Origin: Candidatus Krumholzibacteriota bacterium
GTDB lineage: Bacteria > Krumholzibacteriota > Krumholzibacteriia > JAJRXK01
NCBI GenBank assembly: GCA_963727455.1
Contig: CAVSGG010000008.1
Location: 438,377 to 502,376, forward strand
Length of the DNA stretch: 64,000 nt
Direction of reading: 5' to 3'
Positions 21,476 to 62,160 of the stretch are shown one piece after another. A program made the translations under genes and the position numbers. Numbering within the stretch: position 1 is the stretch's first letter; each line of letters starts with the position of its first letter. Below the pieces are notes generated by a model. It did no database searches. It was not told the origin of the DNA and saw nothing but the letters and a program-made list of their open reading frames with translations.

Positions 21476-23554
21476 TCAGGCGCCGCGGCGATTGCTCCCT
21501 AGTTGTTTTGCCATGAGCTCGGGATCCGTGGTTGGCCGTTGGCAAGTGAATGCGCGACAGACATAGGCGGTCGCGCCGCCTTGCGCGTTCTTCCCCGCCA
21601 AAGGAGGCATCGTCTCCTCGCTGCTCGCTTCACCCGACGCGTGAGAGACGAAGAGGTGCGGGTGATAGCTGGCGCGAGCGCGATGCAACAGTGGCGCAAT
21701 TTCTTCGCGGCTCCCTGCCAGGACCAATTCCGTGCGCTCCGCCAGATAGGCCTCCAGCGCGAGAACCATCGAGGCCATGGCCGCGGGGTGAGCGGAGAGA
21801 ATTCCCCAAAAGGCATGAAGGACACGCTCGAGTTGCCTCGCATACGCGTCGTCGCCGGTAAGTTCGAAGAGGCAGAGCATGTTGGCCGCCGCCACGCTGT
21901 TCGCCGTCGGGGTCGCTCCGTCGTACCCCGTCTTGACCCGCACTAGGAGTTCGGTCTGCCCTTCCTTGGTATTGAAGAGCGCGCCGTCCTCTTCCGCGGC
22001 GAAGTTGCCCATCATTGCATCGTGCAGCTCCTTGGCCGCGGCGAAGAAGCGCGGCTCGAAACCGTCCTGGTAGAGCTCGAGGAGCCCCCAAACGAGCATG
22101 GCGTAGTCTTCACAGTACGCGTCGATGCCGGCCTGTCCGCGCCGCCAACGTCGCTTCAGAGTGCCATCGACGATCATTTCGCGCAGAATGAAATCGGCCG
22201 CTTCGGCAGCCGCGTTCAGATAACGGTCCTGTCGAAGCACTGCTCCCGCGCGGGCCAGGGCGCGTATCATGAGCCCGTTCCAGCCACTCAGGACCTTGTC
22301 ATCCCGCTCTGGACGTGGGCGCCCCGCCCGCCGCGAGAGCAGGATTTGCCTACCCTCCCTCAGGGCCTCACGTACCGCCGGCACCGTGATCGACAGATCG
22401 TCGGCCACTCTCGAGTCGCTCGCGGCGCGGTACAGGATGTTCACGCCCTCCCAGTTTCCGTCCTCGCAAACACCAAAGGCAAGGCGGAAGGGGCCGAAGA
22501 TCTCAGGCGGCAGGGCCTCTTCTATCTCCCGGTATCGCCAGACGTAGAACTTCCCCTCTTCGCCCTCACTGTCCGCGTCTTCGGCGGAGTAGAAACCACC
22601 GAGAGGATCGCGCATGTCGCGTAGAACGTAGTCGAGGGTGCTTGCCGCGACTTCCGCCAAGCGCTCCTCGCCCGTGAGCTGGTAGGCCTCCAGATAATGA
22701 AACGCCAGCTGCGCATTGTCGTAGAGCATTTTCTCGAAGTGCGGTACCAACCAGTTTCCGTCGGTGCTGTAGCGCGCGAAACCGCCGCCCAAGTGGTCGT
22801 AGATTCCGCCCTCGGCCATGCCTCGCAGAGTCGTGAGCGCCATCGCCAATGCCGCTTCGTCCCCCTCTTTCCGATAGCAGCGGAGACAGAGCGAACCGAA
22901 ATCCGAGCGCGGAAACTTGGGTGCGCTGCCCCAACCGCCGCTCCTGCGATCGAAAGAAGCGGCAATTTGTTGATAGAGCCTGTGCACCGGGGTGGCGTCC
23001 ACTTCCCCCTCGCTTTGGTCGAGCAGCGCGAGCTGGGCTAGACTCGCCGAAACCTGCTCGGCCGCGGACGACAGGCGCTCGGATTGGGTCACCCACATCC
23101 GGTGCAACTGGCGGAGCAGCTGGGGAAATCCGGGCCGTCCGAAACGTTCTTCGGGGGGAAAATAGGTGCCGCCGAAAAAGGGCTTTCGATCGGGGGTGAG
23201 AAACACGCTCATCGGCCAGCCACCCTGGCCCGTCATTGCCTGGACCGCGGCCATGTAGATTTCATCGAGGTCAGGACGTTCTTCGCGATCGACTTTGATG
23301 CAGATGAAATGCTCGTTCATGAGCGCGGCGATGGCTTCATTCTCGAAGGACTCGCGCTCCATGACGTGACACCAATGGCAAGTGGAATACCCGATGGAGA
23401 GAAAGATCGGCTTGTTCTCCTCGCGTGCGCGCCGGAGAGCCGTCTCATTCCACGGGTACCAGTCCACCGGATTGTGTGCATGTTGCAAGAGATAGGGGCT
23501 CTGTTCATGGATGAGATGATTGGTGTGGCGGTGTTCCGCGCCGTTCTCTCGCAT
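21476..23554 (-). CDS. Thioredoxin-domain six-hairpin protein (YyaL/SPATA20, DUF255)
   Basis: [48 protein letters not shown]; ATG at 23554. Confidence 0.93.
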
Positions 23555-23588
23555 GAGGCCTCCTGGAATCCCCGGGCTCGGGTTTGAA

Positions 23589-24184
23589 TCCTCCTCGCTG
23601 CGTCCCATGAAGGAGCAAAGCGGATTGTCGAGGAGGAAAGGGGAGGCGGGGAGTGATCGTGTGCTTCCCCGTGAGGGAGAGTTGTGCAGAGGATAAGCAG
23701 AGGGAGGCTTCCTCGCCCGCTCCCTGCTCGGGCAGAGCGAGTCCACGGTGGAAAGCTCGCGCTGCGAACGGACGCAGCCAACACCTCGAGGACCTACTGA
23801 TCCGCGCTGAACCCCTCTCGCACCCCACGGCACCAGTCACAGTTTCTCGCGCACATTCCTTGCTGCCGTCGCGTTTTTCAGGAGAAGCGCTCTCGCTGAG
23901 AGTGCCAGCGGTCTCGCTCTCACCCCCTCCGTCGTGGCGGGTGGGGTGCGGGGCCCTCGATCCGGAGGTTTCGGCGAACGGCCTGAGCATGCGCCCCTGA
24001 GAACTGGGGTGAAACTCGGCTGGTACCTCCTTGATTCCCAACGGGGGCGACGCTCTTTGCGCCAATTGCCGCCGTCGGCCCGGGGGCCCCGAACATTTCT
24101 CCCGAGCGTCCGCGAGATGCCGTGACTCGCGGGTGCCTAAGCTGCGGCTCAACCCACCTCCCGGGGTTGAGCCGCGCTCTTTTT
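23589..24184 (+). ncRNA. Candidate large structured RNA (~600 nt), family unknown
   Basis: Non-coding gap between divergent genes with many nested helices. G-U pairs favour the + strand. Ends in a + strand intrinsic terminator with no + gene upstream. Confidence 0.5.
24144..24184 (+). terminator. Rho-independent terminator
   Basis: Perfect 12-bp stem GCGGCTCAACCC/GGGTTGAGCCGC followed by GCTCTTTTT. Confidence 0.75.
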
Positions 24185-24193
24185 CGCTCCCTT

Positions 24194-24221
24194 TTGCCAG
24201 CATTGAATCGTGTGCTATCTT
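24194..24221 (+). promoter_or_regulatory. Sigma70-like promoter of the aldehyde dehydrogenase gene
   Basis: TTGCCA-N16-TATCTT with a TG extended -10. Confidence 0.5.
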
Positions 24222-24284
24222 GGCCGCCGGACATCCGCGGTCCGGTCACACATATCTGTCTCTTTTTCTCAGGGGTAGCTTCCG

Positions 24285-25802
24285 ATGCGCGATTTTCTCA
24301 AGGAGCTGGGTCTCTCCGGTGTCAATTCCGGCGTCTACGGACAGGGCTGGGTCGATCATCCCAATGGCGGTGAACTCACGAGCTACTCGCCCACTAGTGA
24401 AGAACCGGTGGGGAAGGTTCTGCAGGCCAGCGACGAGAACTACGAAACCGTCGTGGGCGCGGCACAGGAGAGATTCAACAGCTGGCGTATGTTGCCGGCG
24501 CCGCAGCGCGGCGAAATCGTACGCCAGCTCGGCGAGGAGCTGCGCAAGTACAAGCGCCCCCTCGGCAAGCTGATCTCCTTCGAGATGGGAAAGATCCTCA
24601 GCGAGGGAGAAGGCGAGGTTCAGGAGGCTATCGACATCGCGGACTTTGCGGTGGGGCTCTCGCGTCAGCTCTACGGCTTGAGCATGCATAGCGAACGCGC
24701 ACGCCATCGAATGTACGAGCAGTGGCACCCCCTGGGAGTGATCGGGATCGTGACCGCCTTCAACTTCCCCGTGGCAGTGTGGGCCTGGAATGCGATGATC
24801 GCGGCAGTGTGTGGGGACACCATGATCTGGAAGCCCTCCAGCAAAACTCCTCTCTGCGCCATCGCCATCCAGCACATCTGTGATCGAGTGATGAAGAAGA
24901 ATGAAGTGCGCGGAGTGTTCAACCTCTGCGTGGGACGCGGCTCGGCGGTGGGCGAAAAACTCATCAACGATCCCCGAATCCCCCTCATCAGTGCCACCGG
25001 AAGCTGTCGGATGGGCAGGAGGATCGGTGAAGCGGTGGGCAAGAGACTCGGCCGCAGTTTGCTGGAGTTGGGCGGGAACAACGCCATCATCGTCACGAAC
25101 GATGCGGATCCCGATCTGGCCCTGCGCGCGATCGCCTTCGGCGCCGTGGGCACCGCGGGTCAGCGCTGCACTTCCACCCGCCGGGTGTTTCTGCAGCGCG
25201 GCATCGCCGAGGAATTCACCAAGCGTCTGGTGAAAGCCTACGAGAGCATTCCCATCGGCGATCCGCTCGATCCCGACACGCTCATGGGTCCTCTGATCGA
25301 CGAATCGGCGATCGAGGACATGACGGCTGCGCTGGAGGAGGCGCAGGCTGACGGAGCCAAAGTGCTTACCGGCGGCAAACGCATCGACCGAAAGGGCTAC
25401 TTCGTGCAGCCCACCATCGTGGCCGCGAAGCATGGAATCAAGATCGCGCAAGAGGAGACCTTCGCGCCCATCCTCTATCTCTTCGAGTTCGACGAGGTGG
25501 AGGAAGCCATTCGAATGCAAAACGACGTCCGACAGGGTCTCTCTTCGGCGATGTTCACCACTAACCTGCTCTCGGCCGAGACTTTCCTCAGCGCGGAAGG
25601 CTCCGATTGCGGCATCGCCAACATCAACATCGGCACCAGTGGTGCAGAAATCGGCGGAGCTTTCGGAGGCGAGAAGGAAACGGGAGGCGGACGGGAAGCC
25701 GGCAGCGACAGTTGGAAGTTCTACATGCGCCGCCAGACCTGCACCATCAACTACAGCCGTGAAATGCCGCTGGCGCAGGGCGTGAAGTTCGAGATCGAGT
25801 AG
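24285..25802 (+). CDS. Aldehyde dehydrogenase family 7 (aminoadipate-semialdehyde/piperideine-6-carboxylate dehydrogenase-like)
   Basis: AFNFPVAVWAWN, LELGGNNA, GTAGQRCT, GAEIGGAFGGEKETGGGREAGSDSWK. Confidence 0.93.
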   Translation: MRDFLKELGLSGVNSGVYGQGWVDHPNGGELTSYSPTSEEPVGKVLQASDENYETVVGAAQERFNSWRMLPAPQRGEIVRQLGEELRKYKRPLGKLISFEMGKILSEGEGEVQEAIDIADFAVGLSRQLYGLSMHSERARHRMYEQWHPLGVIGIVTAFNFPVAVWAWNAMIAAVCGDTMIWKPSSKTPLCAIAIQHICDRVMKKNEVRGVFNLCVGRGSAVGEKLINDPRIPLISATGSCRMGRRIGEAVGKRLGRSLLELGGNNAIIVTNDADPDLALRAIAFGAVGTAGQRCTSTRRVFLQRGIAEEFTKRLVKAYESIPIGDPLDPDTLMGPLIDESAIEDMTAALEEAQADGAKVLTGGKRIDRKGYFVQPTIVAAKHGIKIAQEETFAPILYLFEFDEVEEAIRMQNDVRQGLSSAMFTTNLLSAETFLSAEGSDCGIANINIGTSGAEIGGAFGGEKETGGGREAGSDSWKFYMRRQTCTINYSREMPLAQGVKFEIE

Positions 25803-60324: not shown

Positions 60325-61626
60325 ATGCCTCCCTCTCTGGGAGGCATTTTGCCAGGTACCGCGGTTGCATCTTTCGTTGGGATCTACCGGCCCCGCCATC
60401 CTGAGCGCACCGCGCTCTACCAGCTTTTCGACCGCCACGGCGAGCGTTTCTTCCGCGAGTACGACGAGCGCTTCGAGCACCAATACGGCCCCTTGCGCGC
60501 CGTTGTGCGACGCGTGGTTGACCAGTATCTCGAGTGCGGTCGCCCCGAGGGGGGCTTCGCGCGCATCCGCTGCCCGAACTGTCGCGGCGAGCACCTGCTG
60601 GCGTTCAGCTGCCAGACCCGCAACTTCTGTCCGAGCTGCCAGGCCAAGCGCGCTGCTCTTTTTGCTGAACATCTGGTCGAGGAGGTGCTCAGCCCGGTTG
60701 CCCACCGCCACGTGGTTTTCACGGTACCCAAGGTGATCCGTGGATTGTTCGAGCGGGAGCGCCGACTGTTGTCGATCCTTCCGCGCTGCGCGCACCGGGC
60801 GATCCAGCGCCTGCTGTGCGAGGCGGTCGATGACCCCCGGGCGCAGGTGGGCACCATCGCATCGATCCAGACCTTCGGCAGCTACGCCGCGAACTTCCAT
60901 CCCCACGTCCACGCGCTGATCACCGAGGGAGCGTTCCACCTACCGCGCCGCGGCGATCCATGGTTCGAGCGCGTCGAGTGGTGGGATCAAAAGACGCTGA
61001 CTGAGCTGTTCCGACGGCTGGTGCTTAAAGAGCTGCGTCGCGCGAAGCGCCTGCGCGAGGAGACCGAGGCCATGCTCTTGTCATGGCAGCACTCGGGCTT
61101 TGGGGTCCATGCCGGCGAGCCGGTGCTGCCCGATCACACCGAGCGCCAGGAGCATCTCGCGCGATACATCACCCGCGCGCCAATCCGGCTCGACGCGATC
61201 ACCCCGCTCGACGCCAAGCAGGTTCGGGTTCGGACACCGATCCATCCCAGCACCGGCCAACGTGATCTCGAACTCGATGTTCTGGAGATGATCCGCCGTC
61301 TGTGCGCCCAGATCCCCGCGCCACGGCAGCATTTGGTCAGATACTACGGCTGGTACTCGCACCGGGCCCGAGGGGCAAGAGCCAACCCCCAGGACGCGAC
61401 GATCGCCAGGGCACCGTCCACTGCGCGCAGCCGCAGCTGGGCACGCCTGCTGCGCAGGATCTTCGAGCTGGACCCCATGCTCTGCCCGCAGTGCGGGGGA
61501 ACCATGAAGATCGTGTCGGTGATCGACGAAGCAGCGGTGGTGGACCGGATTCTCAGACACCTGGTACGGATCGGCGGCAACGACCCGCACGAGGGGACGG
61601 CGCAACGAGCTCCGCCAAGAGCATGA
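60325..61626 (+). CDS. IS91-family (HUH, rolling-circle) transposase with an N-terminal Zn-binding domain
   Basis: CG..GFARIRCPNC..AFSCQTRNFCPSC, HVVFTVP, HPHVHAL (HUH), SGFGVH, LARYITR, VRYYG, WARLLRRIFELDPMLCPQCGG. Confidence 0.93.
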   Translation: MPPSLGGILPGTAVASFVGIYRPRHPERTALYQLFDRHGERFFREYDERFEHQYGPLRAVVRRVVDQYLECGRPEGGFARIRCPNCRGEHLLAFSCQTRNFCPSCQAKRAALFAEHLVEEVLSPVAHRHVVFTVPKVIRGLFERERRLLSILPRCAHRAIQRLLCEAVDDPRAQVGTIASIQTFGSYAANFHPHVHALITEGAFHLPRRGDPWFERVEWWDQKTLTELFRRLVLKELRRAKRLREETEAMLLSWQHSGFGVHAGEPVLPDHTERQEHLARYITRAPIRLDAITPLDAKQVRVRTPIHPSTGQRDLELDVLEMIRRLCAQIPAPRQHLVRYYGWYSHRARGARANPQDATIARAPSTARSRSWARLLRRIFELDPMLCPQCGGTMKIVSVIDEAAVVDRILRHLVRIGGNDPHEGTAQRAPPRA

Positions 61627-61818
61627 ACCCCTACCAGTACCCTCAGCCTCCCGACGAACGCGCAAGGGCACGAGCGTCGGGAGTACGGTGTGCCCAAGGA
61701 TAGGTGGAAGCCGCTCAGGTGGGCGCATGTCGGGCGAACAGAGTTGCGGTAGGGTGAGTCGGGGATCGACAATCAATCCTCATCGTGATCATCGCACCGA
61801 GAACACAGCGCAAAGAGC

Positions 61819-61880
61819 ACCCGTTCTGAAGTTCGGTGCTCGCTTTTCAGCTAAAGCGCCGTATACAATCCACTATCCGT
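61819..61880 (+). repeat. Right copy of the 62-bp direct repeat; probable oriIS end
   Basis: Lies about 200 bp downstream of the transposase stop; ends TATACAATCCACTATCC-GT. Confidence 0.85.
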
Positions 61881-62160
61881 ATTCCCTTGCTCCGACTCAG
61901 AACCTTCTGCTTGCGCCCGGAGCGTACTACTTGAATACTCGCCATCGGCGGTCTCCTTGATCTGGTGGATGTTTTTGCTACACATCCACTTCTACCAGAT
62001 TTCGGAGCCGCCTCCTATTTCAACTAAACTTGGCACATCCTCACGGGATAGGCTTGGAATAGAAATTCACATTTCCCTTCGGAAGGAGGCAAGGCTCCAC
62101 TGGAAAGCCAACCATCTATAGCCGGTAACTTCCAAGGTACCCACCGAATCATCGCTGCAT

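Follow-up and report, generated by a model that had tools for sequence, protein, structure and literature searches.

The RNAs 6C (RF01066) and CcsR1 (RF02791), about 80-100 nt long, carry C-rich loops that pair with G-rich or Shine-Dalgarno (SD) regions of mRNAs, and CrcZ, an RNA of several hundred nt with a part in catabolic control, is sigma-54-dependent like Qrr and Pxr. Together with the lysine riboswitch (RF00168) and the orphan structured non-coding RNAs (ncRNAs) of bacteria, these are the described systems with which the present locus is best compared. Orphan ncRNAs such as the raiA motif were reportedly found by comparative genomics (PMC10861870, PMC11109978). The locus lies in a stretch of 64,000 nucleotides (hereafter the window) on contig C8 (CAVSGG010000008.1) of a metagenome-assembled genome (MAG; G000, 88.85% complete, 6.68% contamination) of a Candidatus Krumholzibacteriota bacterium, where a 730-bp gap (23555-24284) separates two divergent genes. 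We argue that its right-hand part, at about 23875-24184 of the + strand, very probably encodes a real structured RNA. A sequence-only reading of the window had proposed that the divergent genes are separated by a possibly undescribed structured + strand RNA of ~600 nt that has a terminator of its own; the existence of the RNA is borne out by the comparison of relatives, its size is not, since the conserved unit spans only ~310 nt.

The RNA belongs to no described family. Rfam 15 gave no match at the gathering score over the whole 64-kb window and nothing relevant in four homologous loci, and at E<=10 the interval 23400-24400 returned six sub-threshold matches, of which 6C was the best (26 vs 47 bits), CcsR1 scoring 13.1 vs 65.3 bits. 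These two matches (24143-24193 and 24122-24180, respectively) sit on the terminal hairpin, which presents, as 6C and CcsR1 do, a C-rich loop (here CCUCCCG) followed by a U run; the complementarity of this loop to the SD sequence accounts for both. The scores far below gathering, an additional junction domain of ~220 nt, a second invariant loop and the unrelated phylum set the RNA apart from them. With CrcZ, Qrr and Pxr it shares an intergenic position behind a box of the -24/-12 type with the right spacing, in a genome that holds rpoN; it differs by CG or TG in place of GG, by the lack of an activator gene among the 16 open reading frames (ORFs) scanned at window positions 13-36 kb, by the lack of a recognised activator site upstream, and by the lack of any sequence or Rfam similarity. 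Like the lysine riboswitch, it has a conserved junction of more than 100 nt, adjoins a gene of lysine metabolism and ends in a terminator-like hairpin. In contrast to the riboswitch, it has no RF00168 match at E<=10, precedes the promoter box of the gene instead of lying in its 5' untranslated region (UTR), neighbours a catabolic gene, shows by eye no alternative pairing and is confined to two genera. Orphans of the raiA type resemble it in their long G+C-rich intergenic origin, complex covarying fold, lack of protein-coding potential and lack of a known function; it falls in no such family of Rfam 15 and is far rarer. In the portions of the literature surveyed, on the phylum or on the dehydrogenase in combination with riboswitches, no RNA of such kind is reported.

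Several other identities were considered and rejected. Canonical RNase P RNA (RF00010) occurs at unrelated loci in all five relatives (273-302 bits), four of which also carry the present RNA; a 6S RNA lies elsewhere in the genome (C5:583654-583833, 60.2 bits), as does a small SRP RNA (C5:156930-157028, 78.4 bits); and an RNA of a mobile element, plasmid or phage was set aside after blastn gave no match in the plasmid and phage collections. RF00010 (bacterial type A) was not found in the G000 MAG itself, most likely because its RNase P RNA was not assembled or not binned.

A covarying fold in the right-hand part of the gap

Six copies of the RNA, from two genera, were compared. Five of them, the long form, belong to one genus: the window, a second copy on contig C9 of the same MAG, which we counted as one more related sequence, and the homologues in G001, G004 and G002. 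The sixth, the short form, comes from G005 (locus L103), a member of a sister genus in the same family. Identities are given below for the window against the C9 copy, G001, G004 and G002, in that order. RNAalifold applied to the five long forms (window 23866-24182) yields the following elements.

23887..23905, + strand: P0 hairpin, GCGCTCTC/GAGAGTGC; 5' AGCGC invariant, loop variable; missing from the short form
23921..23948, + strand: P1 hairpin, CACCCCCUCCG...CGGGUGGGGUG; missing from the short form
23949..24091, + strand: three-way-junction core, in which P2 closes P3 (with its P4 and P5 extension) and P6
23949-59 with 24081-91, + strand: P2 long-range helix, CGGGGCCCTCG/CGGGGGCCCCG; invariant in the genus
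23964-69 with 24025-30, + strand: P3, GGAGGT/ACCTCC; extended by P4 and P5
24038-53 with 24059-78, + strand: P6, apical extension invariant
24106..24136, + strand: P7 hairpin, stem CCGCGAG/CTCGCGG; loop motif UGCCGUGA in all six copies, preceded by one variable base
24144..24184, + strand: terminal hairpin of 12 bp with the invariant, anti-SD-like loop CCUCCCG, then a U run; presumed 3' end and terminator

When the five long forms are aligned, only the right-hand part of the gap proves conserved. The segment from P1 to P6 (junction core plus P1; 23919-24095, 177 nt) is 98/91/81/80% identical, the linker with P7 100/84/74/70% and the terminal hairpin 95/95/68/63%, against about 84/78/77/77% for the flanking genes and 82/58/42/39% for the 5' part of the gap (23555-23849). 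The P1-P6 core is thus better conserved than the coding sequence on either side, and the 5' part drifts as a spacer does. This is where the sequence-only reading went astray: the ten helices that it listed all exist at the places given, nine of them fully complementary and one pairing at 7 of 8 positions, yet its first domain, a rod of ~225 nt with the TCCTCCTCG hairpin, has diverged like neutral spacer, cannot be aligned in the two distant species and takes in the upstream region of the - strand gene. The rod helices fall to 1-7 pairs in the homologues with no compensation; CCGTGAGG/CCCCACGG, for instance, retains 7, 5, 6, 6 and 3 of its 8 pairs across the five sequences. The left-hand half of the gap is ordinary spacer and lies outside the conserved RNA. 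It contains a perfect palindrome, GCTGCG-N6-CGCAGC (23761-23778), ~90 nt upstream of a conserved box described below. G001 keeps this palindrome through a paired change (GTCGCG/CGCGGC), and in G004 and G002 it can no longer be recognised; it may be bound by a protein or form a small hairpin.

Over the 84 consensus pairs of the five long forms, 97.4% of the 419 cells are paired, vs 41-46% in slid controls, in which the 3' partners of the pairs were shifted by 1-3 columns; eight pairs have changed on both sides (0-1 in slid controls), a result matched by none of 500 shuffles. These compensatory changes are located in P0 (5 pairs, one changed on both sides, 92% of cells paired), in P1 (11 pairs, all cells paired, with a C-G to U-A change in two of the five sequences), in P7 and in the terminal hairpin. 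Within the 3' module, where the short form can be included, 23 pairs over six sequences are 99.3% paired with eight compensatory changes vs 0-1 in slid controls: P7 (11 pairs, 98.5% paired) contributes two pairs changed on both sides, and the terminal hairpin, fully paired, has compensatory changes in six of its 12 pairs. While these stems covary, the loop motifs UGCCGUGA and CCUCCCG are identical in all six copies, which provides the strongest hint that the loops may be working parts of the molecule. In each of P4 and P6 a single pair differs, on one side only, and the sole departures in P3 and P5 are cells that do not pair; P2-P6 being invariant or nearly so within the genus, the central helices are left untouched by the covariation test. 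The second domain of the sequence-only reading holds up for the most part: P0, P2, P3, P7 and the terminator were recovered in the consensus of five homologues, with compensatory changes in P0, P7 and the terminator and with an invariant P2 and nearly invariant P3. The helix GGAGAA/TTCTCC (23881/24097) that was supposed to close this domain was not recovered: it keeps 6/6, 6/6, 2/6, 3/6 and 4/6 pairs in the alignment, and among the minimum free energy (MFE) folds only those of the window and of the C9 copy contain it.

The strand is indicated by the wobble pairs, as the sequence-only reading had anticipated. The pair tables hold 31 G·U cells vs 2 C·A, the + strand keeping 97% of the pairs and the - strand about 90%, and this excess of G·U over C·A selects the + strand. 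The T run behind the last hairpin likewise lies on the + strand. Folding energy gives a mixed answer. The stretch of 596 nt first put forward is only modestly stable on the + strand (z -2.58, one of 100 shuffles as good) and reaches z -4.71 on the - strand, so that folding energy alone settles nothing, whereas the part 23866-24184 folds strongly on the + strand (z -4.71, none of 100 shuffles as good).

That the gap contains no credible ORF, as was claimed, holds in substance and not to the letter: three ORFs of 232, 115 and 109 aa overlap it, yet they have no Pfam match, variable sites fall evenly on the three codon positions in two overlapping ORFs (15/16/15 and 24/27/23), with no third-position periodicity, and homologues break them by 1-nt indels at 23969, 24033 and 24064. 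The indels and the flat periodicity exclude coding, and the idea of a small protein gene was dropped on these grounds together with the missing Pfam match.

The covariance model R1, built on 219 positions of the core, scores 224-251 bits on the five long forms and gave a single weak hit of 21.9 bits in G005, directly upstream of the orthologous dehydrogenase gene; the E-values of this model, as of an 85-position model of the 3' module (R2), are approximate owing to a shortened calibration. The short form is ~215 nt long (MFE fold z -4.65). It is preceded by the box GCGCAC-N5-TTGC (L103 1173-1190), lacks P0 and P1, and has a long-range closing helix of entirely different sequence at the position of P2, a P3-like helix AUGAGG/CCUCAU and the start of P6, CCC-NN-CGGGGGCGA. 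Its P7 has an altered stem under the identical loop motif, and its terminal hairpin, likewise with an altered stem, keeps the CCUCCCG loop and continues through a U-rich tail into TGGTATCTT. Judging by eye from separate folds of the two forms, on which the comparison of P2, P3 and P6 is based, the short form shares the predicted three-way junction of the long form. Mimicry of the 3' end of 16S rRNA by the stretch GGCUGGUACCUCCUU was considered and dropped, the stretch not being kept in the short form.

Distribution and linkage to a dehydrogenase gene

By blastn over 41 genomes, the gap was found in three of the four other genomes of the genus (G001, G002, G004) and in none of 36 outside it, and in all of these relatives the region is syntenic with the dehydrogenase gene. 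R1 applied to the family and to 151 genomes of the phylum added only G005. R2 scores 86-106 bits on the six copies and gave four hits of 30-33 bits in the 151 phylum genomes, none of them near a dehydrogenase or DUF255 gene. A pattern made of the two loops was matched 26 times, in 23 of the 208 phylum genomes scanned. Six matches correspond to the RNA; the remaining 20 are not organised into hairpins and compare with 14 for the reversed control. An exact 19-mer searched over one genome per GTDB species returned 75 loci, of which R1 confirms three (G001, G002 and G004), and an exact 23-mer searched over JGI metagenomes returned two contigs whose scores equal those of the window form and the G002 form. 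Nothing was found by blastn in plasmid or phage collections. The RNA is thus restricted to two genera, with six copies in five of the 208 phylum genomes and one syntenic copy per genome. These figures are to be read with the reach of the searches: the R1 and R2 scans scored 15-29 first-look candidates per genome, so that weak relatives may escape, and exact words miss diverged ones; we speak of the RNA as not found elsewhere, not as absent.

In all six copies the RNA lies directly upstream of the dehydrogenase gene and in the same orientation. The surroundings of the RNA are as follows.

21479..23554, - strand: DUF255/thioredoxin-like (YyaL-type) gene, Pfam PF03190 at 268.7 bits, ATG at 23554; divergent left neighbour
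23555..23848, no strand: non-conserved spacer, comprising the DUF255 upstream region and the 5' rod proposed earlier
24285..25802, + strand: L-piperidine-6-carboxylate dehydrogenase gene (lysine catabolism), NCBIfam NF050084 at 773.7 bits vs a cut-off of 730; Pfam Aldedh

The position of the left neighbour on the - strand, which had been read from the sequence, is correct. This gene is not required for the RNA: in G002 the DUF255 gene was not found with the query used, the RNA is present, and its upstream neighbour is a zinc alcohol dehydrogenase. The context of the dehydrogenase gene in ten genomes of the family and order can be laid out in three lines.

G000 (both copies), G001, G002, G004, G005: RNA present directly upstream; dehydrogenase gene present
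G006, G007, G008, G009: RNA not found; dehydrogenase gene present, with a short divergent intergenic region
G003: RNA not found; dehydrogenase gene not found with the query used

The gene itself is common in the class, with 113 of 201 genomes at E<=1e-180, and neither R1 nor R2 gave a hit at 21 dehydrogenase loci of other families or at the G009 locus.

Some observations concern the MAG itself. Positions 1-60300 of the window are collinear with G000:C9:169996-228961 at 80-88% identity, and further duplicated sites exist between C2 and C6. Probably, given the contamination value, sequence from two related genomes is mixed in the bin, or else a very large duplication is present. On C9 (L002 ~1349-1495) the start of the DUF255 gene matches the window protein in two frames, which suggests an indel or an assembly error, and at E<=1e-180 the dehydrogenase search of G000 reported the C8 gene only. 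An IS91-family transposase (Pfam Y2_Tnp and Zn_Tnp_IS91) is encoded at 60325-61626 (+), with a repeat at about 60800-61900; parts of it recur in several places on C9 and C2 at 89-99.8% identity.

Putative promoters and a proposed transcription unit

Two candidate promoters flank the RNA.

23849..23865, + strand: conserved box GCGCAC-N5-TTGCTG, candidate promoter of the RNA, with sigma-54-like -24/-12 spacing
24194..24221, + strand: promoter of the dehydrogenase gene, TTGCCA, 16 nt, TATCTT with TG extension; extended -10 TGCTATCTT

The box, of general form G(C/T)GCAC-N5-TTGC(T/A)G, is the only conserved upstream element, the sequence on both its sides being variable, and its GCAC-N5-TTGC heart is found in the five long forms and in the short form. 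In all six copies TTGC stands at -12 with canonical spacing from GCAC, and the genome encodes rpoN (Sigma54_DBD, 217.8 bits at C8:25937-26407). A sigma-54 spacing would place the start of the RNA near 23875, 12 nt before P0, and in G005 right at the closing helix. The canonical sequence TGGCAC-N5-TTGC occurs in G000 at C10:120148 (+), C8:29641 (-) and C9:453274 (-), followed in each case within 11-49 nt by an open frame of at least 260 aa; around -12, the C10 site and the box ahead of the RNA have CCTTGCTGC in common. The sequences preceding the 6S and SRP RNAs yielded no usable housekeeping promoter consensus.

At the other end, the + strand terminator of the sequence-only reading was confirmed as a terminator-like stem-loop at 24143-24176 followed by a T run. 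It is the sole such site in 23300-24500, a count no higher than in shuffles (mean 1.0). The tail that follows the hairpin reads CUCUUUUU in the window and the C9 copy, CUCUUUUC in G001 and, in a weaker version, UUCCCUUUCC in G005. Downstream of it, and 72-104 nt ahead of the start codon of the dehydrogenase gene, stands TG(C/G)TATCNT, which is shared by all nine loci of the family (L100-L103, L119-L123), four of which have no RNA, and is missing from the 21 loci examined in other families of the class. Being conserved throughout the family even where the RNA is lacking, this extended -10 box is taken as the gene's own promoter, downstream of the RNA. With a box ahead of it in all six copies and a separate promoter beyond, in a genome that encodes rpoN, the RNA would, somewhat more probably than not on this arrangement of signals, be an independent transcript.

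Possible function and competing explanations

The locus is intergenic, non-coding and conserved in both sequence and structure, as a stand-alone small RNA (sRNA) should be, and we give about even chances to its being a new, lineage-restricted, stand-alone regulatory RNA. Its transcription, possibly sigma-54-dependent, would begin at the conserved GCAC-N5-TTGC box; in the closer species its last hairpin would double as an intrinsic terminator, and the transcript would stop just short of the dehydrogenase gene's separate extended -10 promoter. It may act through its invariant loops, the exposed CCUCCCG pairing with SD regions of target mRNAs, and its junction core may serve as a binding or sensing module. 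The box is a plausible sigma-54 promoter, though we hold this for somewhat less probable than the contrary. Since CCUCCCG is complementary to the SD sequence, translational repression through loop-SD pairing would be the simplest mechanism, and we put forward anti-SD base-pairing by this loop tentatively, as a doubtful proposal. The size of the core and the constraint on it suggest a second function, such as the binding of a ligand or a protein.

A number of points weigh against this reading. As regards the promoter, all six copies have CG or TG, not GG, at -25/-24; the relaxed box motif occurs 50 times genome-wide, which is the level of chance, vs three canonical sites; and no sigma-54 activator family of Pfam was found among the translations of 16 ORFs at window 13-36 kb. 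In G004 and G002 the terminal hairpin has no U run behind it, so that read-through into the dehydrogenase gene is possible there, and the transcript, its ends and its strand are all deduced from sequence. Predicted duplexes between the RNA and the dehydrogenase 5' UTR are energetically no better than those with shuffled UTRs, the fraction of shuffled UTRs as good being 0.63, 0.36, 0.14, 0.94 and 0.96 in the five species, and the constant linkage to one gene is what one would expect of a cis-regulator. With respect to the fold, the - strand of 23866-24184 folds almost equally well (z -4.24); the support for P2-P6 comes from the single short form, compared through its own predicted MFE fold by eye; and the six sequences, two of them from one MAG, are few, and shuffles overstate significance among relatives.

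Among the other explanations, the one that fares best, unlikely as we consider it, is that the RNA is a cis-acting, riboswitch-like leader of the dehydrogenase gene: transcription would start at the upstream box, the core would bind a metabolite or a protein, the terminal hairpin would decide between termination and read-through, and the extended -10 box would supply a basal level. The invariable placement immediately upstream of the gene and in its orientation fits a leader well, as do the loss of the left neighbour in G002, where the linkage to the dehydrogenase stays, and the case of G003, which shows neither RNA nor gene with the queries used; a near-constant junction core with variable apical loops is typical of aptamers, and a terminal hairpin whose U run is present in some species but missing from G004 and G002 is compatible with a switch. 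What speaks for a stand-alone RNA rather than a leader is the promoter box downstream of the RNA, conserved at nine of nine family loci including four with no RNA, which means that the gene does not need the upstream transcript; a riboswitch lies within the 5' UTR, downstream of the promoter of its gene, and this RNA precedes the conserved promoter box; a second promoter further upstream, with read-through, may nevertheless operate. A stable P7 with an invariant loop is interposed between core and terminator, no conserved anti-terminator pairing is seen by eye, and 21 loci outside the family have neither the box, nor the extended -10, nor the P7-loop motif within 700 nt (the lone match lying at -795, in L136). 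It is tempting, as a long shot, to speculate that the junction core senses an intermediate of lysine degradation or a protein of the pathway. The RNA would then act in cis, where read-through from a promoter of the sigma-54 type would be regulated, or else in trans by means of the anti-SD loop.

Still less probable than a leader is that the RNA works by binding protein, as a sequestering RNA or as part of a ribonucleoprotein, with the junction and loops as protein contacts and not as pairing seeds. A core of 177 nt that remains 80-98% identical far exceeds, in size and constraint, what a base-pairing sRNA requires, and loop motifs that stay identical in six of six copies on stems in which 8 of 23 pairs have both partners changed would suit contacts of this kind; against it, no repeated motif such as GGA is seen by eye, the dehydrogenase is the only conserved neighbour, so that no candidate partner gene is at hand, and the genome has its 6S and SRP RNAs at other loci, as the relatives have their RNase P RNA. 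That there is no RNA at all, the region being a DNA-level regulatory element, a small protein gene or what is left of a mobile element, with chance helices due to 65% G+C, is very improbable and already largely refuted: the high G+C (0.63-0.68 here), the folding of both strands better than shuffles and the overlapping ORFs of 63-232 aa are outweighed by the 97-99% of cells kept paired through compensation vs 32-48% in slid controls, by a G·U asymmetry that picks one strand, by 1-nt indels with neither codon periodicity nor Pfam match, and by a single syntenic copy per genome with no plasmid or phage match and no adjoining transposase, reverse transcriptase or nuclease gene.

Returning to the stand-alone regulatory RNA, its rarity limits its general importance unless the core senses a ligand; were this the case, the sensor core would represent a new class of ligand-responsive RNA controlling the piperideine-6-carboxylate dehydrogenase step. 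The long and short forms together define a minimal core for biochemical work, and the exclusive linkage to a gene of lysine catabolism offers a concrete and testable lead to function. If transcribed, the RNA adds a family with a complex fold to a phylum known only from metagenome-assembled genomes.

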